Positions 3,814 to 52,868 of a stretch of DNA of 64,000 nucleotides are shown here, piece after piece. Source of the stretch: an uncultured Ruminococcus sp. (GTDB lineage: Bacteria; Bacillota; Clostridia; Oscillospirales; Acutalibacteraceae); assembly GCA_902773325.1 (NCBI GenBank), contig CACYDW010000173.1, forward strand, positions 11,315 through 75,314, read 5' to 3'. Under the pieces are notes generated by a model. That model was not told the origin of the DNA and did not search any database. It was given only the letters and a program-made list of their open reading frames with translations. The position numbers and the translations under genes are program-made. The number at the start of each line of letters is the position of its first letter. Position 1 is the first letter of the stretch.

Positions 3814-3819
3814 CAGATA

Positions 3820-4047
3820 TTATTCCTCCTGCAAACGCTCGATCATTTTCATCATGGCTGCAGCGGAGTTGAAATTTGCAGGAACAATCTCCACAGCGGG
3901 GACAGTGATATCATATTCATCTTCAAGCTCTGCGACCAAGGCGATAATATCAAGAGAAGACAGAAAATGACCGTCTACCAGATCAGTGCAGTTTTCATAG
4001 TCTGTACCCGGGCGAATATCCTCCAGTATTTCGATAAGTCTTTCCAT
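3820..4047 (-). CDS. Acyl/aminoacyl carrier protein (DltC-like, 75 aa)
   Basis: 'MERLIEILEDI...DGHFLSSLDIIALVAELEDEY' carries a phosphopantetheine-type Ser in the LSSLD context. I start it at the ATG at 4047, because the listed 112-aa ORF (to 4158) would overlap the upstream decarboxylase. Confidence 0.75.
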   Translation of the reverse strand: MERLIEILEDIRPGTDYENCTDLVDGHFLSSLDIIALVAELEDEYDITVPAVEIVPANFNSAAAMMKMIERLQEE

Positions 4048-4048
4048 T

Positions 4049-5236: not shown

Positions 5237-5239
5237 GCT

Positions 5240-14302: not shown

Positions 14303-14473
14303 TCAGCCCTCTGACGGAGCACCAACAGGGCAAACACCTGCGCAGGAACCGCAGTCGATGCAAACATCAGGGTTGATCTCATACTGAGAATCGCCCTCAG
14401 AAATAGCGCCTACAGGGCACTCGCCTGCACATGCACCGCAAGAAATGCAATCTTCTGAAATTTTATAAGCCAT
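14303..14473 (-). CDS. fdx: Clostridial-type 2x[4Fe-4S] ferredoxin (56 aa; too short for the ORF track)
   Basis: Hand translation gives MAYKISEDCISCGACAGECPVGAISEGDSQYEINPDVCIDCGSCAGVCPVGAPSEG*. It has two CxxCxxCxxxCP motifs, an AAGGAGG RBS 8 nt upstream, and its own terminator. Confidence 0.9.
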   Translation of the reverse strand: MAYKISEDCISCGACAGECPVGAISEGDSQYEINPDVCIDCGSCAGVCPVGAPSEG

Positions 14474-14820
14474 AATTACAGCCTCCTTGTTGATTTATTG
14501 AATATATTATAGCATTTTATAAAAAAAAATCAATGCTTTTCTGTTAGATTAAGTTTGTCTAACCTGTAAATAAATATAGGAAAAATTGTAGCAAATTGAC
14601 TATATTATTGCTGTAAAATTCATAGAGTGATTTTAAGATTCTCATGCCGTAAAAACAGACTTTTGTGTGCAAACAAAAACCGGATAAAACTCCTTTACGA
14701 AATTGACGCTGTATGCTATAATAATCATGTACCGACTTTCGACACAACAGCGGTGTATGGTTTTTTTCAGGATTCTGCCGAAGTGTCGTTCGATCATTTA
14801 GTAATATGGGAGGAACAATC

Positions 14821-25470: not shown

Positions 25471-25477
25471 TAGAATA

Positions 25478-25739
25478 ATAGCTGTGAAAAGAAGAAGTAT
25501 GTCGGGAAACAAGGTGCAGAGAGAATATGGCGGGTGAAAATATTCCCTTGTGCCGACAGAAATACATCTTGGAGCTGTCAGTCTGAGAAACGATGATTAG
25601 GTCTGACCGTTTCGCCCGCGTTATGGGGCTTAGGGTGCATAGTAACCCGTGAGGCCGGTGTTGAGAGATATCGGTAAATTGAGGTGGTACCACGGTATTT
25701 TATCGTCCTCTGTTTAAGCAGGGGACATTTTGTTTTTTG
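25478..25739 (+). promoter_or_regulatory. T-box leader (tRNA-Tyr-sensing transcription attenuator)
   Basis: The Stem I region has an AGAGA motif. The specifier loop is 'AGAAAUACA', with the UAC (Tyr) codon at 25563-25565 followed by a purine. The T-box sequence is 'AAUUGAGGUGGUACCACGG' at about 25677-25695. The terminator GUCCUCUG/CAGGGGAC (25705-25726) is followed by AUUUUGUUUUUU. Confidence 0.85.
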
Positions 25740-25842
25740 TCCCCCATTATGGACTGATACGATCAGTATGAAGAAAGGACAGAAACGTATGAAGGATTTT
25801 GAAGCACTGAACCAATTTATGCCCGATGGTGAGCCTGAAAAA

Positions 25843-27090
25843 ATGAGCGTTTCACAAGAACTGGAACGCAGAGGGCTGATCGCACAGATGACAGACGAAA
25901 AGGAAATCAAAGAATTGATCGACTCTGGAAAAGCAGTTTTTTATATCGGCTTTGACCCTACAGCAGACAGCCTCCATGTTGGACACTTTATGGCTCTCTG
26001 TCTGATGAAAAGACTCCAGATGGCAGGCAATAAGCCGATCGCACTGCTGGGCGGCGGCACAGGCATGGTGGGCGACCCGTCCGGCAAAACCGATATGCGT
26101 AAGATGCTGACAAAAGAAGATATCGACCATAATATTGAATGCTTCAAGCATCAGATGAGCCGTTTCATTGATTTTACCGATGGCAAAGCACTTATGGTCA
26201 ATAATGCCGATTGGCTTCTGAAGCTGAATTATGTGGAATTGCTCAGAGAAGTCGGCGCGTGCTTCAGCGTGAACAGAATGCTCACCGCAGAATGCTACAA
26301 GCAGCGTATGGAGCGCGGACTCAGCTTTCTGGAGTTCAACTACATGATCATGCAAAGCTATGATTTCTACCGTTTGTTTACGGAGTACGGCTGTAATCTC
26401 CAGTTTGGCGGTGACGACCAGTGGAGCAATATGCTCGGCGGTACGGAACTGGTCAGAAGAAAGCTCGGCAAGGATGCCTATGCCATGACGATCAATCTGC
26501 TGCTCAACTCCGAGGGCAAAAAAATGGGTAAAACCGAAAAGGGCGCTGTATGGCTCGATCCGGAGAAAACATCTCCGTTTGATTTCTTCCAGTACTGGAG
26601 AAATGTGCCCGACAGTGATGTGATCAAGTGCCTTAAAATGCTGACATTTGTTCCGATCGGATTCATCGATGGTATTGAAAAAGCATTTTCACTCGGTCAG
26701 CTTACTGACGCACAGATCAATACCACAAAAGAGCTTCTTGCCTTTGAGCTTACCAAGCTGGTTCACGGCGAAGACGAAGCACAGAAGGCTCTCAGCAGTG
26801 CAAGAGCATTGTTCTCAGGAAAAGCGGATATTGATAGTATGCCTTTTTCGGAGCTTGATGCGGAGGTATTTACTGACGGGAAAATCGGTTTACTTGACCT
26901 GCTTGCTGTTACCAAGCTTGCTCCTTCCAAGTCGGAGGCAAGACGTCTTGTGCAGCAGGGCGGTATCGCGGTAGACGATGAAAAAATCACCGATGCGAAA
27001 GCAGAGATTTCCATCGACAGCTTTTCAAAGGGCTATGTTGTCATCAAAAAAGGAAAAAAAGTATTTCATAAGGCTGTTTTGAAAAAATGA
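25843..27090 (+). CDS. tyrS: Tyrosine--tRNA ligase
   Basis: 'FDPTADSLHVGHF' is the HIGH motif and 'KMGKTE' is KMSKS. A C-terminal S4 domain is present. The start at 25843 gives the N-terminal length usual for TyrS; 25789 is also possible. The listed start at 25684 lies inside the T-box terminator. Confidence 0.9.
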   Translation: MSVSQELERRGLIAQMTDEKEIKELIDSGKAVFYIGFDPTADSLHVGHFMALCLMKRLQMAGNKPIALLGGGTGMVGDPSGKTDMRKMLTKEDIDHNIECFKHQMSRFIDFTDGKALMVNNADWLLKLNYVELLREVGACFSVNRMLTAECYKQRMERGLSFLEFNYMIMQSYDFYRLFTEYGCNLQFGGDDQWSNMLGGTELVRRKLGKDAYAMTINLLLNSEGKKMGKTEKGAVWLDPEKTSPFDFFQYWRNVPDSDVIKCLKMLTFVPIGFIDGIEKAFSLGQLTDAQINTTKELLAFELTKLVHGEDEAQKALSSARALFSGKADIDSMPFSELDAEVFTDGKIGLLDLLAVTKLAPSKSEARRLVQQGGIAVDDEKITDAKAEISIDSFSKGYVVIKKGKKVFHKAVLKK

Positions 27091-28574: not shown

Positions 28575-28632
28575 TCATAAATAACACTTTTATATATAAT
28601 ATAAATTTGATTTTAAGCAAAGGAGTTTGGCT

Positions 28633-29991
28633 ATGGGAAGATTATTTGGAACAGACGGTGCCAGAGGCGTTGCCAATAGGGAGCTTACCTGTGAGCTTGC
28701 GTTGAATATTGGCAGAGCCGCCGCTATGGTTCTTACCGAAAACAAAAAAAATGATACCCCTAAAGTGCTTATCGGCAAAGATACAAGAATATCCTCCGAT
28801 ATGCTCGAAGGAGCTTTGACAGCAGGTCTTTGTTCTATCGGTGTTGATGTTGTACTGCTGGGTGCAATACCTACTCCTGCTGTTGCCTATCTTATCAGAC
28901 AGTATCACGCAGATGCAGGAATCATGATTTCCGCATCACACAATCAGTTTCAGGATAACGGCATCAAGCTTTTTTCCGGTGAGGGCTATAAGCTGCCCGA
29001 CCGGCTTGAAGAACAAATCGAGTCTATCGTATTGGATGGCTCAAAGCCCTTCGCTGTTCCGGAGGGTGCCGGAATCGGCAGGGTCTGTCATGCAGAGCAT
29101 GCTGCAGAGGAATACATAAATCATGTGATAGAATCTGTTCCGGAACGTTTTGACGGTATCAGGGTCGCTATTGACTGTTCCAACGGTTCCGCATCTACGA
29201 CAGCGGAAAAACTGTTTACACGTCTTGGCGCAGAGTGCTTTATGCTTGCCGATAAGCCTGACGGCATCAACATCAACGATGGCTGCGGTTCTACCCACCT
29301 TGAAATGCTTCAGAAATATGTTCGGGAGCATGATGTACAGTTAGGTGTTGCCTTTGACGGAGATGCCGACAGATGTCTTGCTGTCGACGAAAACGGCAAT
29401 ATCGTGGACGGCGATATGATCATTGCCGCTTGTGCGAAAGATCTGGCGGAGAGAGGAAAACTCCATAAAAATATGGTTGTTGGCACGATTATGTCCAATA
29501 TGGGATTGAGTTGTTTTTGCGCTGATAATCATCTCGGATTTGTTGCCGCTGATGTAGGCGACCGCTACGTGCTGGAGGAAATGCTCCGAAACGGTTATAA
29601 CTTCGGCGGTGAACAGTCCGGACACGTGATTTTCCTTGATTATTCAACTACCGGTGACGGTCAGATGACAGCAGCACAGCTTATCAGCCTTGTTTGCAGA
29701 AAGAATAAAAAGCTGTCTGAAATAGTCGCTTGTATGACGAAATATCCGCAGGCACTTCGCAATGTGCTCGTAACACAAGAAGGCAAGGAAAACCTGAAAA
29801 CAAACGAGGTAATTCAAAGAAAAACTGCCGAGGTAACGGAGCTGCTGGGCAGCGATGGAAGAATCCTTGTTCGTCCTTCCGGAACAGAGAAGATTGTGCG
29901 TGTGATGCTGGAGGGTCTTGACGAGAAAAAAATCAAACAGCTTGCAGATGAAACCGCTGCTCTTATCAAACAGACTATCGGTTCAGAATAA
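28633..29991 (+). CDS. glmM: Phosphoglucosamine mutase
   Basis: 'GRLFGTDGARGVAN', the phosphoserine loop 'SASHNQFQDNGIK', 'DGDADR' and 'RPSGTE' are present. Confidence 0.92.
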   Translation: MGRLFGTDGARGVANRELTCELALNIGRAAAMVLTENKKNDTPKVLIGKDTRISSDMLEGALTAGLCSIGVDVVLLGAIPTPAVAYLIRQYHADAGIMISASHNQFQDNGIKLFSGEGYKLPDRLEEQIESIVLDGSKPFAVPEGAGIGRVCHAEHAAEEYINHVIESVPERFDGIRVAIDCSNGSASTTAEKLFTRLGAECFMLADKPDGININDGCGSTHLEMLQKYVREHDVQLGVAFDGDADRCLAVDENGNIVDGDMIIAACAKDLAERGKLHKNMVVGTIMSNMGLSCFCADNHLGFVAADVGDRYVLEEMLRNGYNFGGEQSGHVIFLDYSTTGDGQMTAAQLISLVCRKNKKLSEIVACMTKYPQALRNVLVTQEGKENLKTNEVIQRKTAEVTELLGSDGRILVRPSGTEKIVRVMLEGLDEKKIKQLADETAALIKQTIGSE

Positions 29992-30086: not shown

Positions 30087-30182
30087 ACAAAAAATCAAGT
30101 CGGTTATAACAAATAATCTACATAATTGATTTAAAAAAACGGAGTTGACTTGTTTTTCTTATGCTATAATGATTACATATGC

Positions 30183-31151
30183 ATGAGAATTATAGGGGGG
30201 ATAGATGTGGCAAATGTTGATATATCAGTGATTATTCCGTCAAAGAATAACCAGAATCAAACCGCAGAGATCATTCGCGGTATTTCAGAAGAGCTTGACG
30301 GAAAAGAGGTCGAGTTTATTATTATTGATATGAATTCAACTGATAGAACTGTTCTTTTCACATTAAATGCTATCAAGAAATATCATCTCAGAGGCTGTGT
30401 GATCCAGAGCGGCAGCGGTAATGTCGGTTCGGCACTCAATACAGGCATTTACCGTTCCAATGGAAAATATGTGACTTTTGTCTATCCGAGCAGACTGTAT
30501 AAAAGCTATCTGGGAGCATATTATACGGCGGCTTACGAAGCGGATGCGGACTTTGTTTTTTCTGTTCCGGCCGACAAGTCCGGCAAAACAACATTAGTTG
30601 GCTCGGGATTGAACAGTATTGCAGGAGAGGAGCTTGCCTGCTGTCTGATCAACTCACAGGTTCATATTGACTTTGGTGCGGTTATGATCAGACGCGATTA
30701 TCTGCTCAATCATCACATCAGCTTTTTTGAGGATATTCCCTCCGGATATTCCGAGGCATTTATTTTTTTGCTGATGCTTTATAACCCCCGTATTGCCTAT
30801 GCGGATGTTACGCTGACACTGGATCATGAAAACAGTACGCCAAAAGAAGCTCCTTCCAACAGCAACTCCTGCTTTGACAGAATCGAGGGAATGCTGAGAG
30901 TCGGAGAGATATTGAAGGGCATTCAAGGCGTCGGAAAACTGAACGCTCTGTTTTTTTATCGTAAGATTCCGTCTGTTGTAATGGCGGCAGTAGACAGTCT
31001 GATGCGCGACGGCTTTCATGCGGCTCCCATCAATAAAACCCTTCGTCTTAAAAAGTATAACAGGCTTCTGAGAATCTCCAAAGCAACACCTCCGAAGCTG
31101 CGTCATAAAATCATTATGTGGAAAACCGCTCCGTGGCTTTATAAGCCATAA
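30183..31151 (+). CDS. Family-2 glycosyltransferase (GT-A)
   Basis: 'ISVIIPSKNNQ...EFIIIDMNSTDRT' is the GT2 N-terminal signature. An alternative GTG start at 30207 follows an AGGGGGG RBS. No TM segment was seen. Confidence 0.75.
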   Translation: MRIIGGIDVANVDISVIIPSKNNQNQTAEIIRGISEELDGKEVEFIIIDMNSTDRTVLFTLNAIKKYHLRGCVIQSGSGNVGSALNTGIYRSNGKYVTFVYPSRLYKSYLGAYYTAAYEADADFVFSVPADKSGKTTLVGSGLNSIAGEELACCLINSQVHIDFGAVMIRRDYLLNHHISFFEDIPSGYSEAFIFLLMLYNPRIAYADVTLTLDHENSTPKEAPSNSNSCFDRIEGMLRVGEILKGIQGVGKLNALFFYRKIPSVVMAAVDSLMRDGFHAAPINKTLRLKKYNRLLRISKATPPKLRHKIIMWKTAPWLYKP

Positions 31152-31243: not shown

Positions 31244-32803
31244 ATGAATCCATCCGAACCGGTGCAAAAGCTCTTGTTATACAATTGGGTGCGCTTCGAC
31301 CATCCGTGGGGGTGGGGCGGCGGTGTTACGATCTACTGCAAAAATTTAGTTGAGGCTTTTTTACAGTATGCACCCGATACGGAAATCTATTTTCTCAGCA
31401 GCGGTACGGTTTATGAAGCCGATCAAACGGAAACATTCTGCCGTAAAAGTCAAGCTGTTTTCGGAGAGCGGGTGCATTTGTATGAGATCGTCAATTCCCC
31501 TGTACCTGCCGACCAGTCGTTTATTCTGTCCAATCCTGCGGCAGCTGTAAAGAATGAAAAGCTTAAGTCTGTTTTTGCGGATTTTATGAGAGAACACGGC
31601 AGCTTTGATGCCGTACATTTTCATAATTTAGAAGGTCTGTCGACTGATGCTTTAGAGCTTAAAAAGGAATTTCCGGATACGCAGTTTGTTTTTTCAATAC
31701 ACAATTATAATACGATCTGTCTTACCGGAATGTATTATATGCGCGGGAAACACTGTATTTGCAGTCCTGACCATACCGAAGCCGACTGTTTTGACTGTGC
31801 GCGAAGAGGGTCAAAAAGCGACCCTGCGGGGGCGATTTTCCGTCGTGCGCTTGTCGGCGGACATTTCGGAAAAAATTGCAGGAAAAATCAGTGGCTTGCG
31901 GAAACGGAGCTTGATTGCTTTATGATGTCTGCCGATAAGGAGCATATCAATGCTTATACCCGCGCTGCTGTGGAAAATCTCAACACATACTGCGACAATA
32001 TTCTTGCTGTATCGGAGCGTGTATATGAGATTGCTGTCAAAAACGGCTTTGACAAGAAAAAACTCCGTGTGATGTATATCGGCACGAAAATAGCTGCTCG
32101 TCAAGGTCGGCCCTTACAGCATGATAAAGCTGTATCGGACAGGCTGAAAATTGTTTTTTTGGGCAATGATATCCATAACGAAGAAAAGGGATATCCGTTT
32201 TTGCTACGGGCACTGGGACAGCTTCCGCCGGAATATGCCTCTGAGATTGATCTTTTTTTTACTGTAAGGCAGCACAAATCGGGCTATATTAAAAAGTGCC
32301 TGAAAAACTTCCACTCCGTCACAGTCAAAAGAGGATATACCCACGATGACTTTGACGTTATCTTTCACGATGCGGATTTAAGTATTGTCCCGGTTCTTTG
32401 GGAGGATAATCTGCCGCAGATCGCTATTGAGTCGGCTGCCTGCGGTGTACCGGTGCTTTCAAGCTCGGCAGGCGGGGCAAAGGAGCTTTGTGATGATGAA
32501 CGCTTTGTATTTGAATGCGGTAATGAACAGTCGCTGATTGACAGAATCAAGGCGATTGCGGATGAGCCTGCGATTCTTGAGGATTATAGAAAGAAGCTCG
32601 TAAGACTCGAAACATTGGAAAGTCATATCCATAAGCTTGCAGAAATCTATCATATAAAGCTGACCGATACAGAACCTGCTTTTGTTCCTTCGCAAAGGGT
32701 GAGAAAGCGCGGCATGATATACAGGAAGCTGCAGCGGCTGCGTTACTGTCTTAAAAAAGGGACAGTAATTGTTTTTGAAAAGCTTGGTGCCTATCGCGGC
32801 TGA
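31244..32803 (+). CDS. GT-B fold glycosyltransferase (GT4-like) with a Cys-cluster insertion
   Basis: The C-terminal half, 'VPVLWEDNLPQIAIESAACGVPVLSSSAGGAKEL', is GT1/GT4-type. The N-terminal half contains 'WGWGGGVTIYCKN' and the Cys cluster 'C..x10..CICSPDHTEADCFDC'. It is a paralogue of the central module of the next gene. Confidence 0.75.
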   Translation: MNPSEPVQKLLLYNWVRFDHPWGWGGGVTIYCKNLVEAFLQYAPDTEIYFLSSGTVYEADQTETFCRKSQAVFGERVHLYEIVNSPVPADQSFILSNPAAAVKNEKLKSVFADFMREHGSFDAVHFHNLEGLSTDALELKKEFPDTQFVFSIHNYNTICLTGMYYMRGKHCICSPDHTEADCFDCARRGSKSDPAGAIFRRALVGGHFGKNCRKNQWLAETELDCFMMSADKEHINAYTRAAVENLNTYCDNILAVSERVYEIAVKNGFDKKKLRVMYIGTKIAARQGRPLQHDKAVSDRLKIVFLGNDIHNEEKGYPFLLRALGQLPPEYASEIDLFFTVRQHKSGYIKKCLKNFHSVTVKRGYTHDDFDVIFHDADLSIVPVLWEDNLPQIAIESAACGVPVLSSSAGGAKELCDDERFVFECGNEQSLIDRIKAIADEPAILEDYRKKLVRLETLESHIHKLAEIYHIKLTDTEPAFVPSQRVRKRGMIYRKLQRLRYCLKKGTVIVFEKLGAYRG

Positions 32804-32863: not shown

Positions 32864-32891
32864 TTGACATAATTCCCGAAACTGTTATAAT
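32864..32891 (+). promoter_or_regulatory. SigA-type promoter with a long leader
   Basis: TTGACA, then 16 nt, then TATAAT, with a TGT extended -10. It lies about 165 nt upstream of the ATG at 33059. Confidence 0.55.
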
Positions 32892-33058
32892 AAAAGTATC
32901 ATCAGTATAAGATAAAATGAGCTTGTTGTGTTTGCTGACGGCATACACCATAGCTTTGCGCTTATTCTGATTTTTCGGTTATTTGTCCGAACCTGTGTGT
33001 TCGGCATTGAAGCTGAAAAGACTGACTGCCAAATAAGTAAATCGGAGGACTTGTGCAA

Positions 33059-36000
33059 ATGAGTAATGAAACTATCAAAAATGCTTCTGAAACAGCCGAG
33101 AGTACTGCTGCTGTATCAGAAGAAAAAACGACCGAAGCAGATGTGCCAAAGGTGTCTGTTGTTATTCCTATCTACAATGTTTCCAAGTATCTGAGAAAGT
33201 GCGTGTCCAGCGTCATGAACCAGACTCTCAAGGAAATTGAGATTATCTGTGTTAACGATGGCAGCACTGATGATTCACTTGAAATCATTCAGGAGCTTGC
33301 AGCAGAAGATTCAAGGATCCGTATTATTGACAAGCCAAACAGCGGTTATGGCAATTCCATGAACAGAGGCTTTAAGGCTGCGACCGGTGAGTATATCGGT
33401 ATTGTTGAGAGTGATGACTTTATCGCTCCCAATATGTTTGAAACCCTCTACGGTCTTTCGTTTGATGGTACTGTTGACCTTGTCAAGGGCAATTTCTACG
33501 ACTACTATGTAGACGGCAACCAGCCTCCCCGTACCATCATCAACAGAGAACGTGATATGATTCCCGACAGTAAAAGACCCTTTACGCTCCGTCAGGACGC
33601 TCAGATCTCATGGGGACATCCTTCTGTATGGACTGCTATTTACAGAAGAGAGTTCATTGTCAAGAATGATATCAAATTCATCGAAGCTAAAGGCGGCGGT
33701 TGGGTAGATAATCCGTTCTTCTATGAAACTCTCTGCAAGGCAGAGAGCATTATGTGGACAAAAGAGCCGCTTTATTACTATATGAAGAGCAACCCGAATT
33801 CTTCCTCCAATCTCCAGATGGATCCGCGTCTGCCCTTTGAAAGAATGCTTGATAATCTTGATGTTCTTGAAGCAAACAATATGAATGACGATGCAAATAA
33901 GCGTTGTGCATATGCAAGAGCACTGATGTATCTTAACGGTGCGCTCCAGGATTTTGACTACGATAAAGACGGCGAAGTGATCAATGACTATGCTATGCGC
34001 CTGATGCGTCGCCTTGACGAAGATACACTGATGAATGACTTCAATCAGCGCGATCAGCTTCGTTATGTTACTTACGCTTCACCGCTCAAATATATCAAAT
34101 CCAAAGCTCCTAAGATTCTGATTTATAACTGGCTTCCCTTTGATAACCCCTGGAACTGGGGCGGCGGTGTTACCGTATACTGCAAGAATGTAATTTCGGA
34201 GATTCTGAAAAGTGATCCGTCAGTCAATATCTACTTCCTCAGCAGCGGTTTTGCTTATGCAGCAAACACCACCAAGACATTTTTCAGAAAGATCAACAAT
34301 ATGTTCGGCGACAGAGTACACCAGTTTGAGATCGTTAACTCTCCTGTTCCCGCAGACCAGAGAAACCTCTATATCAATCCGCTGGTAGCTCTCGAAAATG
34401 AAGGACTCAAAGAATTATTTGCCGACTTCATGAAGAAATATGGACCGTTCAATGCAGTTCACTTCAACAACATTGAAGGTCTTTCACTTGATGTATTTGA
34501 CCTCAAGGAGCAGTTCCCCAATACCAGATTCATCTATTCTATCCATAACTATATGCCGATGTGTGCAACAGGCATTTACTATATGCGTCATAAACACTGC
34601 AACTGCTATCCCGGCAGAACCGGTGAGGACTGCATGGCTTGTACAAGAAGTGACATCAAAGACCATATCGCAGAAGAAACCTACAAAAGAGGTCTTTTCG
34701 GTCTTGAGCCTAAGGACTGCATTTCTCAGAGCCGTTGGATCAAGAGCTTCGGCTTTGAAAGACTTGATCAGTCTGTAACCGCTGACAACATTCAGGACTT
34801 TGCCAATACTGCGACCGCTAAAATCAACAAGAACTGCGATGATATCCTTGCTGTATCTCAGAGGGTTTATGATATCGCAGCGGAAAACGGCTTTGATGAG
34901 AGCAAAATGAGAGTGCAGTATATCGGCACAAAGGTTGCTTCCAAGCAGCTTGGTTTTGCAGCCGCAAAGGCGGAGGACGGTCTGAAGATCGTATTCCTCG
35001 GCAGTGATATCAACTATGAAGAAAAGGGCTATGCGTTCCTGCTGGATACTCTCGAAAAACTCGATAAGGACTATGCTTCCAAGATTGATCTTGTTCTTAC
35101 CGTAAAGCAGGCAGAGCATGCCGAAATCTATAGTATGTGCAGGAACTTCCGTTCACTCAAGGTTATTCAGGGTTATACACATGCAGATCTTCAGTGGATT
35201 TTTGAGGGTGCTCATCTGAGTATTGTGCCTGTACTGTGGGAGGATAACCTTCCCCAGATTGCAATCGAATCGGTTGCATACGGTGTACCTGTACTTGCAA
35301 GCACTGCCGGCGGTGCGAAGGAGCTTTGTGACAGTGAGCTTTTCCGTTTTGAATGCGGAAATTCTGATGATATGAATGCAAAGCTTATGCACTTCGTAGA
35401 TCATCCTGAGGATCTTCTGACATACTGGGAGCATCATCATGGACTTGTTACAATGAAGATGCACTGGAACGAGCTTTCTGAGATCTATGGTATTTCTCAT
35501 GATACGTCCGTTTCACTTTCTGTTGAGGATCTCAACTATATCCTCAAAGAGAATGAGTATCTGCATAAACATCTTTCTATTGATGGTCACAGCGTCGCTG
35601 ATGACTCTGCATTAGAGGATCTTCGCAGAAGACTCAGAGAAGCAGAAACGAAAAATGATCAATTAAAACAGGAGATGAGTGAGATGGGTGGTATTTCAGG
35701 CAAGGTTGTTTTCCAGAATGAGGTAAAGGATCATCGTCAGGGTGCAGGAGCGGATATGTTCAAGCTTGTCCTCGATGATTATGATTTCAGCGATTTCTAT
35801 GCAGAGATCAAATTCATCAGGGTCAACAATATTGCTGCTTCTTACTCCAGTACACTTACCATTTCCGGTACACTCCTTGATATCGGTTCCGGCAGAGAAA
35901 TGGTACTCCATCAGGCAGAGTGGTCAGATACCGAGAACGGAGTTAAGGATCACATCTTTTTCTACATCAGAAATAACTCGATCGTATTCTTTGCTGAAAA

Positions 36001-36148
36001 TCTGGAGCAGTACGGCGGTGTCGCTTATGAGATTCAGGCTCTTACCAGCCGTGCAGCCCATGATTCTGTTAAATTCCAGGCTCTTAACGATACCTTTGTT
36101 TATAAAAACGAGCTTGTTCCCAATGATGCTGTCAATAGTATCGAATAA
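33059..36148 (+). CDS. Tri-modular glycosyltransferase: GT2 (N-terminal), GT4-like GT-B (centre), then a coiled coil and an unknown C-terminal domain of about 140 aa
   Basis: GT2: 'VSVVIPIYNVSKYL...EIICVNDGSTDDS...ESDD'. GT-B: 'WNWGGGVTVYCKN ... VPVLWEDNLPQIAIESVAYGVPVLASTAGGAKEL'. Coiled coil: 'LEDLRRRLREAETKNDQLKQEMSEM'. I prefer the ATG at 33059 (GGAGG 10 nt upstream) over the GTG at 33053. Confidence 0.8.
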   Translation: MSNETIKNASETAESTAAVSEEKTTEADVPKVSVVIPIYNVSKYLRKCVSSVMNQTLKEIEIICVNDGSTDDSLEIIQELAAEDSRIRIIDKPNSGYGNSMNRGFKAATGEYIGIVESDDFIAPNMFETLYGLSFDGTVDLVKGNFYDYYVDGNQPPRTIINRERDMIPDSKRPFTLRQDAQISWGHPSVWTAIYRREFIVKNDIKFIEAKGGGWVDNPFFYETLCKAESIMWTKEPLYYYMKSNPNSSSNLQMDPRLPFERMLDNLDVLEANNMNDDANKRCAYARALMYLNGALQDFDYDKDGEVINDYAMRLMRRLDEDTLMNDFNQRDQLRYVTYASPLKYIKSKAPKILIYNWLPFDNPWNWGGGVTVYCKNVISEILKSDPSVNIYFLSSGFAYAANTTKTFFRKINNMFGDRVHQFEIVNSPVPADQRNLYINPLVALENEGLKELFADFMKKYGPFNAVHFNNIEGLSLDVFDLKEQFPNTRFIYSIHNYMPMCATGIYYMRHKHCNCYPGRTGEDCMACTRSDIKDHIAEETYKRGLFGLEPKDCISQSRWIKSFGFERLDQSVTADNIQDFANTATAKINKNCDDILAVSQRVYDIAAENGFDESKMRVQYIGTKVASKQLGFAAAKAEDGLKIVFLGSDINYEEKGYAFLLDTLEKLDKDYASKIDLVLTVKQAEHAEIYSMCRNFRSLKVIQGYTHADLQWIFEGAHLSIVPVLWEDNLPQIAIESVAYGVPVLASTAGGAKELCDSELFRFECGNSDDMNAKLMHFVDHPEDLLTYWEHHHGLVTMKMHWNELSEIYGISHDTSVSLSVEDLNYILKENEYLHKHLSIDGHSVADDSALEDLRRRLREAETKNDQLKQEMSEMGGISGKVVFQNEVKDHRQGAGADMFKLVLDDYDFSDFYAEIKFIRVNNIAASYSSTLTISGTLLDIGSGREMVLHQAEWSDTENGVKDHIFFYIRNNSIVFFAENLEQYGGVAYEIQALTSRAAHDSVKFQALNDTFVYKNELVPNDAVNSIE

Positions 36149-36190
36149 TGAGATTGCAGCAGAATGATCTGCTGCCAATATACAACAAAT

Positions 36191-36247: not shown

Positions 36248-36351
36248 TCGTATATTGCCGTTTATGCGGCAGTGCTTAGCAGGAAGATTGTTTCGGGCGG
36301 CAGATGAGTGTTTACCGCCTTTTACTTGCATAAGTCAGGAGGCTATCGTCA

Positions 36352-39300
36352 ATGGAAATGTATGAAGGCATTGCATCTGTAAAAAGACTGTCGGTTTATT
36401 TGCAGGAGCTGAAAACAATACTGAACGAGCAAAAGCTCATTGCCGTAATTTGTGTAAAGGATACGGCCGGGTATTGGCTCGATTCCGGAATACAAAACGA
36501 ATTGGAAGAACTGGGAATTCAAGAAAACCTGGTCAAGGCACTGATGTCAGGCTATATTGCCATTGTTAAAAGCAGTGTTGGTATACTCCACGAAAAGCTC
36601 AATCACAATGATGTCGAAGAATATCATGGCGAAATCGACGGTCATCGCTTCGACATTATCAGTCAACCCTATAACAAGGGAAATGTATGTTCGGTCAAAA
36701 TAGATGATCAGGAGTATGCTATCGGCAGAAGAGGGCTAAATATCGTTCTGTTTGATGCCGAAAATAATCAGGTTATGGATTCGGTTGCCTTTGATACGCA
36801 CGTACAGAATTATGCTTGCAGCAGAATGAAGCCGCATTATGATGTCGGTGTAGTGGGCTGCTGGTGGGGTGCCAATTACGGTTCCTGCCTGAACGGCTAT
36901 GCCGTATACAGGGTGCTCAAGGATATGGGAAAATCCGTGCTGATGATCAGCAAGCCTAATGCGACTCTCAATGACTGGGAGGTTGTAAACACCCATAATG
37001 CAAGATTTGTTGACAGATTTTATGACCCTACAGAGGTGAGTCCCTGCCTTTCCACTAAAAGTCATGAAGAGCTGAATGACTACTGCGATACCTTTATTTC
37101 AGGTTCAGACCAGATCTGGAATTATTTTGTCAACAAGATTTTTGACATGACCTTCATGCTCAATTTTGCTCATTCTGAGAAGAAAAAGCTCAGCTTTGGC
37201 ACATCCTTCGGTAAAGAGGTCGATATTACCCCGAAGGATAAAAGAGCTTACTCTGCAAGTCTGCTCAAACAATATAACGCGATCGCTGTCAGGGAAGAAA
37301 GCGGCGTCCGTATTTGTAACGAAATCTATGGGATCAATGCTACAACCGTTGTTGAGCCGGTATTCTGTCTGCCGCTGTCGGAATATCAGAAGCTGGCAGA
37401 GTGCTCACAGCTCCAGTTGGAACAGCCGTATATTCTGACGTATATCCTTGACCCCACACCGGAGAAGCGGGAAGCAATCCAATATTACTGCGAGATTTCC
37501 GGAATGAAGGCATATAATGTTCTTGACGGTGACCCGAGAAAATATGATAAGAATAAGCTATTGCTTGACTTGCCTGATATAATGGATAAAATAGGTGCAG
37601 ACGACTTTATGAAGCTATATATGAATGCTTCTCTTGTCATCACGGATTCCTTCCATGGTTCGGCATTTGCAATTATCTTCAATAAACCGCTGCTGTCTAT
37701 TACCAACATTACACGCGGTGCAGTCAGATTCAATGAGCTTTTGGGCAAGTTTAAGGTGCTTGACAGACTCTGCACGAATCCTGCCGAAATCCCGCATGAT
37801 CCGAGGTTCCTCGAACCGATCGACTACACGGAAACCAATCGGATTATTGAGTCCGAGAGAAACAGATCCATTGAGTGGCTGCGTCATGTGCTGGAAACAC
37901 CTGTGGAAGAGCTGCCTCCCATTGAAATACCTATGAAAGCGATAAAAGAAAATGCCGTAACAACGAAGTTAGAGAAGAAATTCTGTACGGGCTGCTCTGC
38001 TTGTGTCAATGCCTGTCCGCACGATGCGCTTTCGATTCGTCCCGATGAATACGGATATTATCGCTCTGTGATAGACAGTGAAAAATGTATCGACTGCGGA
38101 CTTTGTTCACGGGTATGTCCTGTTATTACGACTAAGGAAAACAAGAACAGTGCGGAACCGGATTGCTATGCACTGGTGGCAGCAGATGAAGACATCGTTA
38201 TGAAAAGCTCCAGCGGCGGCGCGTTTTCACTGCTTGCCAATGAGGTGTTCCGCAGAGGCGGCATTGTTGCCGGTGCGGCATGGAACGAGGACAATCTTAC
38301 GGTCGGGCATATTCTTGTTGACAAGCCGGAGGAGCTTTATAAGCTGAGAAAGTCAAAATATCTGCAAAGCTATATGGGAGATTCCTTTACACAGGTAAAG
38401 GAAAAACTGGATGATGGACAGCTTGTGCTCTTTACAGGCTGTGCGTGTCAGATAGCAGGTTTGAAGTCTTTTTTGAGAAAGGATTATGACAACCTGATTC
38501 TTGTGGATATTTTCTGTACGTATGTACCGTCCGCAGGATTCTTCAAAAAGTATATTGAAAGCAGCTTCAAGGATTTTGGAAGCTATGAATTCAGACACAA
38601 AGAAGGAGAAAAATGCTGGGACTGCTATACCGTTCAGATTACCGATAAAAACGGTAATGTTGAAGTACGGCGCGGTCCTGCCGAAGATGATTTCCAGCGC
38701 GTATTCCATAATCACACCATGACGGATGCCCACTGCGAAAAATGCAAGTTCCAGAACACAAAGCGTGAAGGCGACATTACACTCGGTGATTTCTGGGATA
38801 TCGGCAAGAAAAAGACGGATATTCCCTCCAACAAGGGTGTGTCTTGTGTTCTTATCAACAACGAAAAGGGCAGAGCCTTCTTTGAAAGTATTCCGGATGA
38901 AGAGATTGCCTTCAAGGAGAGTGCACCGCTGTCGTGGCTGGGCGGCAACGGCGGGGTAGGCAATACCAAGAATTATGCCTCCTCCAAAAGAAATGACTTC
39001 TTTAAGGCATACAGAACCATGCCGTTTGATAAGGCTGTCAACTATGCTCTTAAACCGAACCACGGTCAATACAGCAGTGACTACGTCATCAAGGGTGCGC
39101 CGCTGCATTTCAAATCCAACAAAAAGGTATTCAGCTTTGATGATAATGTGTGGGAGGAGCATAACATCAAAGGCTATACAACGCTGTTTGTAAAGCCCGG
39201 ACAGAGTGCTCCCGGCAAGTTTGCCACTATACCGTTGAACCGGCTTCTCGAAAAGGGTCAGACTTATACGCTGCTGATTCGTTTCAGAGCAAGAACAGAC

Positions 39301-39522
39301 AGTGAGTTTATCAACTTCCACGTCAAGGATTCCGGTTCTAATCAGTGGCAGGTTATGCACTACTGCAAGATGTCAAAGCATAAGGGAGAGGGATGGATCG
39401 AGATCACCCAAAGCTTTGTTCCCAACTCTCATGTGTATGATGAGTTTATGATCACCGCCTCCCAGATCGTCGGTGAAGATGCCTATATTGCCATAGATTA
39501 TATTTCGATTCAGAAGCTGTAA
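36352..39522 (+). CDS. Multi-domain fusion: unknown N-terminal domain, polysaccharide pyruvyl transferase, 2x[4Fe-4S] ferredoxin motif, FrhB-like (F420 hydrogenase/dehydrogenase beta-like) flavoprotein module, C-terminal beta-sandwich-like domain
   Basis: Pyruvyl transferase: 'VGVVGCWWGANYGSCLNGYA', 'FISGSDQIWNY' and 'VITDSFHGSAFAIIFNKP'. Fe-S: 'CTGCSACVNACPHDA' and 'CIDCGLCSRVCPV'. FrhB-like: 'SSSGGAFSLLA', 'KSKYLQS' and 'FTGCACQIAGLKSF'. The last ~150 aa are beta-rich and CBM-like. An AGGAGG RBS is present. Confidence 0.75.
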   Translation: MEMYEGIASVKRLSVYLQELKTILNEQKLIAVICVKDTAGYWLDSGIQNELEELGIQENLVKALMSGYIAIVKSSVGILHEKLNHNDVEEYHGEIDGHRFDIISQPYNKGNVCSVKIDDQEYAIGRRGLNIVLFDAENNQVMDSVAFDTHVQNYACSRMKPHYDVGVVGCWWGANYGSCLNGYAVYRVLKDMGKSVLMISKPNATLNDWEVVNTHNARFVDRFYDPTEVSPCLSTKSHEELNDYCDTFISGSDQIWNYFVNKIFDMTFMLNFAHSEKKKLSFGTSFGKEVDITPKDKRAYSASLLKQYNAIAVREESGVRICNEIYGINATTVVEPVFCLPLSEYQKLAECSQLQLEQPYILTYILDPTPEKREAIQYYCEISGMKAYNVLDGDPRKYDKNKLLLDLPDIMDKIGADDFMKLYMNASLVITDSFHGSAFAIIFNKPLLSITNITRGAVRFNELLGKFKVLDRLCTNPAEIPHDPRFLEPIDYTETNRIIESERNRSIEWLRHVLETPVEELPPIEIPMKAIKENAVTTKLEKKFCTGCSACVNACPHDALSIRPDEYGYYRSVIDSEKCIDCGLCSRVCPVITTKENKNSAEPDCYALVAADEDIVMKSSSGGAFSLLANEVFRRGGIVAGAAWNEDNLTVGHILVDKPEELYKLRKSKYLQSYMGDSFTQVKEKLDDGQLVLFTGCACQIAGLKSFLRKDYDNLILVDIFCTYVPSAGFFKKYIESSFKDFGSYEFRHKEGEKCWDCYTVQITDKNGNVEVRRGPAEDDFQRVFHNHTMTDAHCEKCKFQNTKREGDITLGDFWDIGKKKTDIPSNKGVSCVLINNEKGRAFFESIPDEEIAFKESAPLSWLGGNGGVGNTKNYASSKRNDFFKAYRTMPFDKAVNYALKPNHGQYSSDYVIKGAPLHFKSNKKVFSFDDNVWEEHNIKGYTTLFVKPGQSAPGKFATIPLNRLLEKGQTYTLLIRFRARTDSEFINFHVKDSGSNQWQVMHYCKMSKHKGEGWIEITQSFVPNSHVYDEFMITASQIVGEDAYIAIDYISIQKL

Positions 39523-39572
39523 GTCGGTACTTCATAAAATGAAACCGGCTGTATAGAGTGCGGAGGTATCAG

Positions 39573-40226
39573 GTGAAGAAGTATAAGCTTGTTATTTTTG
39601 ATTTGGACGGCACACTTGCTGATACCTCCCCCGGCATTTATAACTCCATTCGCTACACACAGCAAAGAATGCTGCTTCCTGCCATTTCCACAGAACAGAT
39701 GCGTTCCTTTATTGGTCCGCTCTCGCGGGACAGCTATCACCGTTGTTTTCATCTCAGTGGTGAACAGCTCGATGCGGCGCTTTCGTTTCATAAGGAATAT
39801 GCCATGAATCGGGGATACAGGGAACTGACATTCTATGACGGTATCCCCAGGCTGCTCGGTTTACTGCGTGACGAAGGTATGCAGACGGCAGTTGCGACCC
39901 TTAAAGCTCATACAACTGCTGTAAAGATTTTAGAAACGTTCGGAATGATGAACACTTTTGACGTTGTGGCCGGCACAGACAACTATCACCCTGTGACAAA
40001 AGCACAGCTTCTGGAGCATTGTATGGAAAGCTTGTCCGTTTCTGAAAAGGATGCCGTATTGATTGGTGACAGTACGTTTGATGCCCTCGGGGCGGCACAG
40101 GCAGGAATTGATTTTATTGCGGTGACCTACGGCTTTGGGTTCCGGAATGCTGCCGATGCTGAAGGGTATTCTTGTATAGCCGTGTGTGATTCACCTGATG
40201 AATTGGAACACATATTACTGCTATAG
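39573..40226 (+). CDS. HAD-superfamily phosphatase (phosphoglycolate phosphatase-like)
   Basis: 'LVIFDLDGTLADT' is HAD motif I, and 'GDSTFD' is motif IV-like. The GTG start at 39573 follows a GGAGG RBS. Confidence 0.75.
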   Translation: MKKYKLVIFDLDGTLADTSPGIYNSIRYTQQRMLLPAISTEQMRSFIGPLSRDSYHRCFHLSGEQLDAALSFHKEYAMNRGYRELTFYDGIPRLLGLLRDEGMQTAVATLKAHTTAVKILETFGMMNTFDVVAGTDNYHPVTKAQLLEHCMESLSVSEKDAVLIGDSTFDALGAAQAGIDFIAVTYGFGFRNAADAEGYSCIAVCDSPDELEHILLL

Positions 40227-50533: not shown

Positions 50534-50948
50534 AATACTATCACCGTTGAAAAAAATATCGTGTCAGGAGATTCCCGTGTATTGCAAGGAGTGTCCGGAA
50601 TACAGACAGCCTGCAAAAGGTTCTACTGCTTTAGTTTATTATAGCATAGATCAGCTACTTTCAAAAGTGTTTTTTAAAAGAATCTAAAATAAATATATTA
50701 TTTATAAAAATTGCTTTAAATTTATTATAAAGTAGTGTATAATGTATATAATTCGGTGTTTTGTACCCTTTTCTATTATTATAAAGATATTGATAATCTG
50801 TAATAGTTATAGTAGGCGACAAAAATATTCTTACTTAGAGTGATGTCCCAAGGGGTGTGGGGGCGACCGGAAAGCCAACACGGTCAGACTATAATCTATC
50901 AAAGTATAAAAAATAATGTCGTTTACTATAAAAACGGAGGTGCTTTTT

Positions 50949-51911
50949 ATGGAAACCAAATTTTCCGTATCATTAAAAAAAATAATTGATGAGCTTGATC
51001 TTACCGTTGCTTATATGCCGTCATCTCCTGAGGATATCAGCGTGTCATCCAAGGATATCACCAGACCCGGTCTGGAGCTGACAGGCTTCCTTGATTTCTT
51101 CGATAATTCGCGGATCATGCTTTTCGGCAATACTGAAAACAGCTATCTGAACAAATTCAGCTCCGAACAGCGATACCATGTTATTGAAAGGTTGTTTGCT
51201 CTGATGCCGCCTGCCATTATTGTTACGCGCGGTATTGTGCCTTATGATGAACTGATGTCTGCCGCAGATAAATACAAAATACCGGTGCTCCGGTCTGCCG
51301 ATTCCACTTCCACGCTTTCTGCATCGTTGGTTTCGTTTCTGAATTCAGAGCTTGCACCTCGCGTTACAAGACATGGCGTACTTGTGGAGGTATATGGTGA
51401 AGGAATCCTGATTGTCGGCGACAGCGGTGTTGGTAAGAGTGAAACAGCTATCGAGCTTATCAAAAGAGGTCACCGTCTGATTGCCGATGATGCCGTAGAA
51501 ATCAGGCGCGTATCCAACAAACAGCTGATCGGTTGTGCACCTGCAAATATCCGTCATTTTATCGAGCTGAGAGGCATAGGTATTATTAACGCACGACGTA
51601 TTTTCGGTATGGGTTCTGTCAAGCTCAACGAGAAGATTGACATGGTGATCAATCTGGAGGTCTGGGATAATAAAAAGGTCTATGACCGCATGGGTATGAG
51701 CAATGAGATGACAGAGATCCTCGGTATTCAGGTTCCGATCCTGACTATTCCTGTCAAACCCGGAAGAAATATTGCTGTTATTATTGAGGTTGCTTCTATG
51801 AACAATCGTCAGCGCAAGATGGGTTATAATGCTGCAAGAGAGCTTTTCCAGCTTCTCGGTCTGGAATATCCGGAGGAAGAGGAAGGCGGCGTACAGCCAA
51901 TAGCGTTCTGA
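50949..51911 (+). CDS. hprK: HPr kinase/phosphorylase
   Basis: 'GVLVEVYGEGILIVGDSGVGKSETAIELIKRGHRLIADD' is present. The start at 50949 follows a GGAGGTG RBS. Confidence 0.92.
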   Translation: METKFSVSLKKIIDELDLTVAYMPSSPEDISVSSKDITRPGLELTGFLDFFDNSRIMLFGNTENSYLNKFSSEQRYHVIERLFALMPPAIIVTRGIVPYDELMSAADKYKIPVLRSADSTSTLSASLVSFLNSELAPRVTRHGVLVEVYGEGILIVGDSGVGKSETAIELIKRGHRLIADDAVEIRRVSNKQLIGCAPANIRHFIELRGIGIINARRIFGMGSVKLNEKIDMVINLEVWDNKKVYDRMGMSNEMTEILGIQVPILTIPVKPGRNIAVIIEVASMNNRQRKMGYNAARELFQLLGLEYPEEEEGGVQPIAF

Positions 51912-51959: not shown

Positions 51960-52868
51960 ATGTTAGATCAAAAATTTATTGAATTACTTTCCGAGAATGA
52001 TGCAGAGCTTTTCTTTGATGAACCAATGAGCAAGCGGACAACCTTTCGTATCGGCGGAAATGCCGATTGTGTTTGTGAGGTTCATACGCTTACGGCACTC
52101 CGGAGCATTATGAAGCTTTGCAATGAATATGATGTTCCGTATTATGTGCTTGGGCTTGGTTCCAATCTTCTTGTTTCTGATCAGGGTGTGAGGGGACTGA
52201 TGATCAGGCTCACCGGCGAATTTAACGATATCACCCTTAAGAACGATAACATCGTTTGCTGCAAAGCCGGTGCGACACTTGCAGGACTGTGTGTGTTTGC
52301 ACGTGACAGAAGTCTGAGCGGTGTGGAATTCGCGTGGGGCATTCCCGGCTCGGTGGGCGGTGCGGTGTATATGAATGCAGGTGCCTACGGCGGTGAAATG
52401 AAAGATGTTGTTATATCCGTAACCTGTGTTGACAAAAACGGATGTATCAGAACCTACACCGGTGAAGAACTTGATTTTTCCTATCGCCACAGTGCTTTTT
52501 CCGATACCGACAGTGTGATTACGGATGTGTCTTTTCAACTGAAAAAAGGCGATGCGGCGGTAATAGCCGACCGTATGCAGGAACTGATGAATCGAAGAAA
52601 ACAAAAGCAGCCGATCAATCACCCCAGCGCAGGAAGCGTGTTCAAACGTCCCTCCGGCTATTATGCGGCGGCATTGATTGACGAATGCGGTCTGAAGGGA
52701 TATACGGTCGGAGGCGCAAACGTTAGTGAAAAGCATGCCGGCTTTATTGTAAATGACCACAATGCCTCTGCGGAAGATGTTAAAGAACTGATTAAATATA
52801 TACAAAAAGTTGTAAAAGAGAAAAAAGGAGTTCAACTCACCTGTGAAATCAGGATGATCGGTGAGTGA
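51960..52868 (+). CDS. murB: UDP-N-acetylenolpyruvoylglucosamine reductase
   Basis: 'TTFRIGGNAD', 'LGLGSNLLV' and 'PSAGSVFKRP' are present. Confidence 0.9.
   Translation: MLDQKFIELLSENDAELFFDEPMSKRTTFRIGGNADCVCEVHTLTALRSIMKLCNEYDVPYYVLGLGSNLLVSDQGVRGLMIRLTGEFNDITLKNDNIVCCKAGATLAGLCVFARDRSLSGVEFAWGIPGSVGGAVYMNAGAYGGEMKDVVISVTCVDKNGCIRTYTGEELDFSYRHSAFSDTDSVITDVSFQLKKGDAAVIADRMQELMNRRKQKQPINHPSAGSVFKRPSGYYAAALIDECGLKGYTVGGANVSEKHAGFIVNDHNASAEDVKELIKYIQKVVKEKKGVQLTCEIRMIGE

Follow-up and report, generated by a model that had tools for sequence, protein, structure and literature searches.

A pyruvyl transferase fused to an FrhB-like redox module in an uncultured Ruminococcus: a possible lactyl ether-forming enzyme of bacterial surface glycans

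Architecture of the fusion protein

The gene described here lies within a 64,000-nucleotide stretch of DNA (‘the window’; contig CACYDW010000173.1 of assembly GCA_902773325.1) from an uncultured Ruminococcus sp., and consists of a single open reading frame (ORF) on the forward strand, its frame unbroken and free of internal stops, that encodes 1056 amino acids (aa) plus a stop codon. The original prediction had divided its product into five parts: an unassigned N-terminal unit, a pyruvyl transferase, a pair of [4Fe-4S] motifs, an FrhB/FdhB-like flavin module and a beta-rich tail resembling a carbohydrate-binding module (CBM); an anatomy that, together with all of its family assignments, is upheld by Pfam profiles and by Foldseek comparisons of predicted structures. 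In window coordinates, the gene and its parts are as follows, with E-values where an in-house hidden Markov model (HMM) was used:

36338–36343 (+): Shine-Dalgarno sequence AGGAGG, 8 nucleotides (nt) 5' of the ATG, by direct reading of the sequence
36352–39522 (+): the whole ORF, comprising N-domain, pyruvyl transferase, 2x[4Fe-4S] ferredoxin, FrhB-like flavin/[4Fe-4S] module and CBM-like tail
36352–36846 (+): N-terminal domain, residues 1–165, alpha/beta, an accessory module (own HMM, E 3e-62)
36853–37866 (+): PS_pyruv_trans domain of the CsaB/WcaK/Pvg1p type, residues 168–505, GT-B-like (Pfam PF04230, Foldseek, invariant residues)
37972–38127 (+): 2x[4Fe-4S] ferredoxin domain, residues 541–592, with motifs CTGCSACVNACP and CIDCGLCSRVCP (Pfam Fer4_7, Fer4 and related models)
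38167–38901 (+): FrhB_FdhB N (606–675) and C (691–850) domains, with presumed flavin site and third cluster (Pfam, Foldseek)
39049–39519 (+): C-terminal beta jelly-roll tail, residues 900–1056, of CBM4/CBM22-like fold (Foldseek)

No membrane segment is predicted in the protein, for which the maximum Kyte-Doolittle mean over 19 residues is 1.42; the absence of any hydrophobic stretch of membrane-segment length fits a cytoplasmic Fe-S protein. An AlphaFold2 model of the full fusion protein, built on 43 homologues, has a mean predicted local distance difference test score (pLDDT) of 89.4 and a predicted template-modelling score (pTM) of 0.59, the latter as expected for a ‘beads-on-a-string’ layout of domains; searched against the PDB with Foldseek, three of the five parts (redox module, transferase and tail) can be assigned a fold. 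Taking sequence and model together, the best explanation is that the fusion protein is a soluble, cytoplasmic, bifunctional glycan-modifying enzyme, and this is the identity that we propose for it.

The pyruvyl transferase domain is matched by Pfam PS_pyruv_trans (PF04230) over residues 175–452 (E 2.3e-25; 90.5 bits against a cut-off of 25.3), the alignment spanning profile positions 1–278 of 280. In the model it adopts a two-lobed, GT-B-like fold, for which Foldseek finds the pyruvyl transferase Pvg1p of yeast (5ax7_A, E 1e-5) as well as further GT-B enzymes at E 6e-7 to 6e-5; a profile of the domain run against PDB sequences gave no match. Conservation was judged here and throughout from 43 homologues, in all of which residues S252-D253-Q254, R314, D432-S433-x-H435-G436, R455 and R459 are invariant. 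The Arg/His set among these (R314, H435, R455 and R459) resembles in its residue types the Arg/His/Lys set that binds phosphoenolpyruvate (PEP) in CsaB (R148, H308, K328) and in Pvg1p (R217, R337, H339) (PMC10435577). The ketal pyruvyl transferases CsaB, WcaK, Pvg1p, PssM and WcfO have both the Pfam family and the GT-B-like fold in common with this domain, but are single-domain proteins that need no redox partner, whereas here a flavoreductase with three clusters and a pair of accessory domains form part of the transferase's own chain.

The redox module opens with the ferredoxin domain (Fer4_7, E 4.8e-11), whose two CxxCxxCxxxCP motifs lie where they had been predicted, at nt 37984–38019 (residues 545–556) and 38086–38121 (residues 579–590), and whose eight motif cysteines are invariant in 43 of 43 homologues. 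FrhB_FdhB_N (PF04422) then matches residues 606–675 (E 2.6e-8; 34.3 bits against a cut-off of 22) and FrhB_FdhB_C (PF04432) residues 691–850 (E 1.2e-17; 64.6 bits against 23.3), so that profile scores above cut-off back the FrhB/FdhB assignment as they do that of PS_pyruv_trans. Within this part, C699, C722, C795 and C798 are again invariant in 43 of 43 homologues, for a total of twelve invariant cysteines in the redox module, and the motifs SSSGG (619–623) and KSKYLQS (667–673) are conserved; from these patterns we infer that the four cysteines act as ligands of a third [4Fe-4S] cluster and that the two motifs form the flavin site. Residue 791 (nt 38722–38724), within the motif HNHTMCxxHCExC, is Thr in this protein as against Cys in 40 of the 43 homologues; the four strictly invariant cysteines are intact.

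The fold of the redox module is that of FrhB, with 8rja_E as the best Foldseek match (E 2e-15, template-modelling score 0.65 on the target) and 8riu_B, Fsr (7npa), FrhB (6qii_B), HCAR (5dqr) and 4ci0_C among the others; in a profile search of PDB sequences, the alignment covered only the ferredoxin and N-domain parts. Domain content, the conservation of the presumed cofactor ligands and the fold assignments are what the analysis shows directly.

The FrhB_FdhB N and C domains are common to the module and to FrhB-type subunits (the beta subunit of F420-reducing hydrogenase, FpoF and the N-terminal half of Fsr), and a 2x[4Fe-4S] ferredoxin domain likewise precedes the FrhB part in FpoF and Fsr; our comparison also took in the F420-reducing subunits of formylmethanofuran and CO dehydrogenases, as well as HCAR, the ferredoxin-dependent enzyme of plants and cyanobacteria, beside which BciB is another FrhB-type protein. 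Unlike FrhB-type subunits, the module has no hydrogenase or dehydrogenase partner and is tied instead to a pyruvyl transferase; its NCBIfam scores fall far under every equivalog cut-off (48.5 bits against 475 for FpoF); and its hosts, in contrast to those of F420-using systems, are gut anaerobes and Enterobacteria in which F420 is not known to occur. We know of no F420 synthesis in Clostridium sporogenes, Eubacterium limosum or Klebsiella. Given the host range (Clostridia, Succinivibrionaceae, Klebsiella) and the lack of an equivalog-level match, use of F420 by the module appears unlikely, and a part in F420-dependent energy metabolism was rejected, both hosts and context being wrong and the scores too far below the equivalog cut-offs. 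HCAR itself is not an F420 enzyme, but takes electrons from ferredoxin to reduce an organic substrate; FrhB-fold enzymes are therefore not limited to F420.

Homologues and distribution of the fusion

Homologues and surveyed loci are cited below by our own P and L numbers. A homologue search returned 513 proteins at E<=1e-5; the architecture is common to more than 100 homologues, and those with all five parts include P0002 (60% identical) and P0070. Most homologues are about 890 aa long and start exactly at the position of Met169 of the ORF (MKKHYDV...), and for that reason come without the N-domain. The junction between transferase and redox module is conserved in hundreds of proteins.

When the redox module alone was searched against 1.84 billion cluster representatives, 16,743 matches were obtained at E<=1e-3 and 7,044 at E<=1e-30. 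The best 150 of these (representatives of clusters at 50% identity) were classified with our own domain HMMs, giving about 85 with the redox module ahead of the pyruvyl transferase (‘Redox-PvT’ and variants), about 33 with the order of the present protein (PvT-Redox, with or without the tail) and about 31 stand-alone redox modules; in about 80% of these best 150, the module shares its chain with a pyruvyl transferase, in one order or the other. A survey of 53 loci from species-representative genomes gave the following count of ORFs with a redox module:

PvT-Redox-Tail: 27
N-domain-PvT-Redox-Tail: 3
PvT-Redox: 5
partial PvT-Redox-Tail: 8
Redox-PvT: 4 to 6
stand-alone redox modules: 10

The hosts of these loci comprise Ruminococcus, Lachnospiraceae, Oscillospiraceae, Succinivibrionaceae and Gastranaerophilales, together with an Eggerthellaceae and an alphaproteobacterial metagenome-assembled genome (MAG). 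In at least five loci (L037, L038, L040, L042 and L045) the stand-alone redox gene adjoins a separate pyruvyl transferase gene. Annotated records also contain split pairs, among them those of Ruminococcus albus 7 (pRUMAL02), of Pseudobutyrivibrio xylanivorans (pNP95) and of a plasmid from Desulfotalea; in most cases a flippase gene separates the two or lies close by. Annotated records and MAG loci therefore both bear out the statement of the original prediction that unfused genes of the two families often occur side by side. Stand-alone relatives of the redox module occur in C. sporogenes and E. limosum. No Enterobacteria are present among the best 120 protein matches to the Desulfotalea stand-alone gene, and a blastn search with two proteobacterial genes against 5,426 Escherichia coli genomes gave no match.

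Fusion to a pyruvyl transferase, then, prevails throughout a very large family and is common in gut and rumen anaerobes, which makes the ORF itself less surprising. The two catalytic modules are tightly coupled in evolution, being fused in both orders and also found as adjacent split genes, and the functional coupling that the original prediction had drawn from the single fused ORF is borne out; the existence of fusions in either order argues strongly that the activities serve a single step, or two steps in succession.

Departures from the simple architecture were also seen. In five variant loci from uncultured Ruminococcus/Ruminococcaceae (L001, L003, L005, L006 and L051) the transferase domain of the redox-tail protein is incomplete, and two to three further pyruvyl transferase genes lie downstream, with a 1296-aa PvT-PvT double enzyme in four of the five. 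In the larger proteins P0039, P0088, P0106, P0113, P0116 and P0118 (1470–1830 aa), NAD-dependent epimerase/dehydratase (PF01370) and hexapeptide acyltransferase domains are added to the core. The JGI label of the five-domain homologue P0070 is ‘murB family protein’, and P0070 has no MurB domain; the label may have been passed on by transitive annotation, for example from the capsule gene cpsG of Enterococcus faecalis. The capsule locus of that species contains glf, an ABC transporter and cpsG, the last annotated as a ‘MurB family protein’.

Accessory domains

The N-terminal unit of about 160 aa, left unassigned in the original prediction, is a real and conserved domain, present in P0002, P0070 and others. 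Modelled separately, it gives a pLDDT of 87.6 and a pTM of 0.85; compared with the PDB, its fold finds no match with E<0.5 (best E 0.58). An ILEI/PANDER-like identity (PF15711) was considered and rejected, the domain reaching 21.3 bits against a cut-off of 27, over 31 of 90 profile positions and with no PDB fold match; a related N-domain from L011 scores 27.3 bits with ILEI, just at the threshold. The domain recurs at the end of a 719-aa protein in L011 (6830–8986) and in proteins of Redox-PvT-N-domain order.

The all-beta tail (about 155 aa) matches CBM4/CBM22/CBM6 jelly rolls with Foldseek E-values of 3e-6 to 3e-5 (1k42, 3e-6; 3p6b, 4e-6; 4xuo, 8e-6; 4qpw, 8e-6; 5fui, 3e-5; also 2y64). Its description as CBM-like holds at the level of fold but not of profile, there being no Pfam match to CBM_4_9 (PF02018) in the fusion protein at E<=1; several homologues carry a precomputed PF02018 match. 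Two alpha/beta-hydrolase-like proteins of L034 (9586–11073 and 11046–12578) likewise terminate in a tail of this type.

N-domain and tail are mobile, interchangeable modules, shuffled among the enzymes of related loci, in keeping with recognition of a polymer or scaffold that those enzymes share; probably they hold the enzyme on its glycan or on the assembly machinery.

A proposed mechanism

The formation of a ketal from PEP is redox-neutral, such that the presence of a dedicated three-cluster flavoreductase implies a different chemistry, acting on the substrate or the product of the transferase. In the mechanism we propose, the GT-B-type transferase would, as its family membership suggests, transfer a carboxy-bearing unit of three carbons from PEP to a hydroxyl group of a growing polysaccharide that is probably lipid-linked. 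Rather than being closed to a cyclic ketal, the adduct would be left, or captured, as an enolpyruvyl (1-carboxyvinyl) ether. Low-potential electrons, most likely derived from ferredoxin, would then enter through the two ferredoxin-type [4Fe-4S] clusters and pass to the FrhB-type cluster and flavin, where the C=C bond would be reduced to give a lactyl (1-carboxyethyl) ether; the substrate would occupy the pocket in which FrhB binds F420, or HCAR its chlorophyll substrate. Donor, enol-ether intermediate, electron source and lactyl product are all what we infer, and the proposed product would be an open-chain ether, in contrast to the ketal made by CsaB-type enzymes. Reasoning by analogy, we lean, if by a little, towards this sequence of enolpyruvyl transfer from PEP and ferredoxin-driven reduction to a lactyl ether.

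The reaction logic is like that of MurA/MurB, the analogy raised in the original prediction, in which a PEP-derived enol ether on a sugar hydroxyl is reduced by a flavin enzyme to a lactyl ether, MurB performing this reduction on UDP-GlcNAc-enolpyruvate. The proteins are not homologous: the transferase is GT-B-like as against the MurA/EPSP-synthase fold, and the reductase has an FrhB fold with Fe-S clusters as against the NADPH/FAD-dependent PCMH fold of MurB. Membership of the MurA or MurB families was rejected, no such Pfam match being found in the ORF at E<=1; a genuine MurB is encoded elsewhere in the window. As a second precedent, the nitroreductase-fold, C-terminal domain of FbiB acts on dehydro-F420-0, in which it reduces the PEP-derived enolpyruvyl moiety to an (S)-lactyl group (PMC6450877); like the proposed fusion, this is an enolpyruvyl-to-(S)-lactyl reductase, here a proven one, joined to another enzyme of its pathway, but it differs in having another fold, in using FMNH2 without Fe-S clusters and in acting on a cofactor precursor, not a glycan. 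The wider claim, that the pyruvyl transferase and FrhB-like pair is a ‘lactyl-ether synthase’ of bacterial surface glycans, and so the third independent enolpyruvyl reductase after MurB and FbiB and a role outside F420 and energy metabolism for the FrhB family, whose unassigned members in gut bacteria number thousands, we regard as evenly balanced.

Lactyl ethers in Klebsiella capsules and elsewhere

Many surface polysaccharides of bacteria carry lactyl (1-carboxyethyl) ethers; the exopolysaccharides of Butyrivibrio, for instance, have a high content of 1-carboxyethyl sugars. Lactyl ethers are documented on E. coli O58, O69, O124, O146 and O150 (PMC7685785), and the E. faecalis capsule bears lactic acid on O-3 of galactofuranose, with the lactyl methyl doublet at 1.37 ppm (PMC3060912). 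In the literature searched, we found no genes assigned to lactyl-ether synthesis on bacterial glycans outside peptidoglycan, no function assigned to the redox partner, and, save for a catalogue of Klebsiella capsule genes, no paper linking pyruvyl transferases with F420/FrhB-like genes; a review of pyruvylation makes no mention of F420 or of lactyl groups (PMC6801904).

That catalogue, by Pan et al., reports pyruvyl transferase genes in four pyruvate-free capsule types, K8, K22, K37 and K66; its supplement places the nitroreductase HG127 and the transferase WclZ both in K22/K37 only, and the ‘coenzyme_F420_hydrogenase’ HG203 and the transferase WcqF both in K66 only, the paper assigning no function to either HG127 or HG203 (PMC4616057). 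Table 1 of PMC6856556 in turn lists beta-GlcpA-O-lactyl in K22 and K37 and beta-Glcp-O-lactyl in K66, these being the only O-lactyl columns there, with the K66 entry read by us from column positions in a flattened table and cross-checked against the K22/K37, K54 and K64 rows. A title cited in PMC3857182 identifies the sugar of K22/K37 as 4-O-[(S)-1-carboxyethyl]-glucuronic acid. Each lactyl-ether type of Klebsiella (K22, K37 and K66) thus combines a ‘pyruvyl transferase’ with an oxidoreductase and has no ketal, a pattern unremarked in the source. The oxidoreductases of K22/K37 and of K66 have two unrelated folds. We liken these pairs (WcqF with HG203, WclZ with HG127), each with an equal K-type distribution, to the fused pair; in Klebsiella, however, each pair consists of two distinct genes from Gram-negative capsule loci of the Wzx/Wzy type, while the modules in the window are fused. 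From this correlation and from the FbiB precedent, the MurA/MurB-type reading draws genuine, if indirect, backing.

Weighing of the alternatives

Several points weigh against the proposed lactyl-ether route. To our knowledge, no characterised PS_pyruv_trans enzyme releases an enol ether. Those members that have been studied (CsaB, Pvg1p and others) all form ketals (PMC10435577, PMC6801904). A simple one-to-one pairing of the modules does not hold in L001, L003 and L051, where one redox module goes with three to five pyruvyl transferase domains, and among the window ORFs scanned there is no flippase, polymerase or ABC (ATP-binding cassette) exporter. The Klebsiella link amounts to two independent loci, since K22/K37 count as one; it depends for K66 on the table reading given above, relates HG203 to the module by annotation label and not by sequence comparison, and draws on a supplement that gives homology groups and the K types holding them, not gene order. 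Saying this, there is also K8, with a transferase gene, no pyruvate and no listed reductase, so that discordance of this kind can have other causes (PMC4616057).

The alternative that survives best, although we consider it unlikely, is that an ordinary ketal pyruvyl transferase has been joined to a reductase for a different step of the pathway, acting on a keto-sugar or on another substituent of the repeat unit, with the fusion serving to co-localise the two on one polymer. The ketal chemistry of all biochemically studied family members speaks for this, as do the free shuffling of domains implied by an N-domain and tail common to unrelated enzymes of these loci and the existence of fusions to PF01370 and hexapeptide acyltransferase domains (P0039, P0088, P0106 and P0113). 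Set against it, such fusions to other pathway enzymes are rare, while the pairing with the pyruvyl transferase is specific and pervasive, reaching about 80% of the closest 150 representatives and occurring in both orders; moreover, the K66 and K22/K37 capsules have the transferase and no ketal.

Considerably less probable is redox-gated pyruvylation, in which the Fe-S/flavin module would have no substrate of its own and would serve as a sensor or allosteric switch that makes ketal formation depend on the redox or ferredoxin state of the cell. Fe-S domains are indeed often sensors, but a three-cluster ‘wire’ with conserved flavin-site motifs is the layout of catalytic FrhB-type subunits, and stand-alone modules beside separate transferases suit an enzyme better than a regulatory domain.

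A further reading, also put forward in the original prediction, has the redox module reduce, or reductively process, the finished pyruvate ketal; we find nothing in its favour beyond the co-occurrence of the domains, and judge it very improbable, since the ketal carbon has no readily reducible bond, we know of no polysaccharide substituent to match, and the lactyl-bearing Klebsiella capsules show no residual ketal. Finally, an artefact in which two adjacent genes were joined by an assembly or sequencing error, for which one might cite the internal Met169 as the start of the common forms of about 890 aa, has a negligible chance of being correct, given the continuous frame of what is a single real ORF, the identical protein P0001 from an independent assembly and the many full-length homologues with the N-domain, and is refuted outright for the conserved transferase-redox junction.

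Should the lactyl-ether route be correct, a large block of mis-named genes would gain a function, as ‘coenzyme F420 hydrogenase beta-like’ genes are found in thousands of capsule and exopolysaccharide loci of organisms without F420. Charged lactyl epitopes would become predictable from genomes, with relevance to serotyping, phage receptors and the surface chemistry of gut microbes, and enzymology would gain a ferredoxin-dependent analogue of MurB. Together, the architecture and the Klebsiella pattern turn the origin of glycan lactyl ethers into a directly testable hypothesis, one that the fused enzyme makes it convenient to examine on a single protein.

Genomic context

The fusion gene sits in a small island of glycan-related genes, the other scanned ORFs of the window, outside this island, being housekeeping genes. 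Its neighbours, in which GT2 and GT4 denote glycosyltransferase families, are:

28627–29991 (+): phosphoglucomutase/phosphomannomutase (Pfam)
30150–31151 (+): GT2 (Pfam)
31244–32803 (+): GT4, 519 aa (Pfam)
32864–32891 (+): candidate sigma-70 promoter upstream of the GT2-GT4 gene, perfect consensus TTGACA-16-TATAAT with TG (consensus scan only)
33053–36148 (+): GT2 + GT4 double glycosyltransferase, 1031 aa, the upstream neighbour (Pfam)
39558–40226 (+): HAD-family phosphatase, 36 bp downstream of the fusion gene (Pfam HAD_2, E 6.7e-33)

The GT2+GT4 protein is 73% identical to its counterpart in L011, and its family (about 1020 aa) stands directly upstream of the fusion in 12 of the 53 loci; no Pfam family matches its last ~200 residues, which bear no relation to the CBM-like tail. 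The separate GT4 protein (31244–32803) is 51% identical to the C-terminal half of this GT2-GT4 family, and so a paralogue of that half. A possible operon of GT2-GT4, fusion and HAD genes may be read from the candidate promoter, and the phosphatase gene, although not a conserved neighbour in related loci, is probably co-transcribed with the fusion gene. Just 3' of the GT2-GT4 stop codon, within the 203-bp spacer ahead of the fusion gene, lies a perfect 7-bp hairpin (36156–36175, GCAGCAG-AATGAT-CTGCTGC) with no T run.

Across the survey, the commonest neighbour of the PvT-Redox-Tail subfamily is a GT2 enzyme with a GlfT2-like N-terminus (25 of 53 loci), with UDP-galactopyranose mutase (Glf) in 6 and an ABC-transporter ATPase in 4. 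These neighbours, together with the GT2+GT4 family, point to polymers built wholly on the cytoplasmic face of the membrane, in which setting a glycan-binding module on a modifying enzyme would make sense; by way of analogy, O-antigen ABC transporters carry a carbohydrate-binding domain. Of the commonest neighbours, the window contains only the GT2+GT4 protein, there being no Glf, GlfT2-like gene or polysaccharide exporter among its ORFs scanned.

Elsewhere in the window, the canonical MurB (FAD_binding_4 and MurB_C) is encoded at 51960–52868 (+), adjoining HPr kinase (50916–51911); the organism thus possesses the classical enolpyruvyl reductase in addition to the FrhB-like module. A 63-codon ORF at 14306–14494 (-) matches the 2x[4Fe-4S] part of our redox HMM (E 1.5e-8) and resembles a small clostridial-type ferredoxin; it is a conceivable electron donor. 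A T-box leader (25475–25713 (+), 128.5 bits) is located immediately upstream of the tyrosyl-tRNA synthetase gene (25684–27090), and at 2182–6754 (-) an MBOAT membrane acyltransferase, a pyridoxal phosphate-dependent decarboxylase and an AMP-binding enzyme are encoded in a row, a set that looks like Dlt-like polymer acylation with an unusual decarboxylase.

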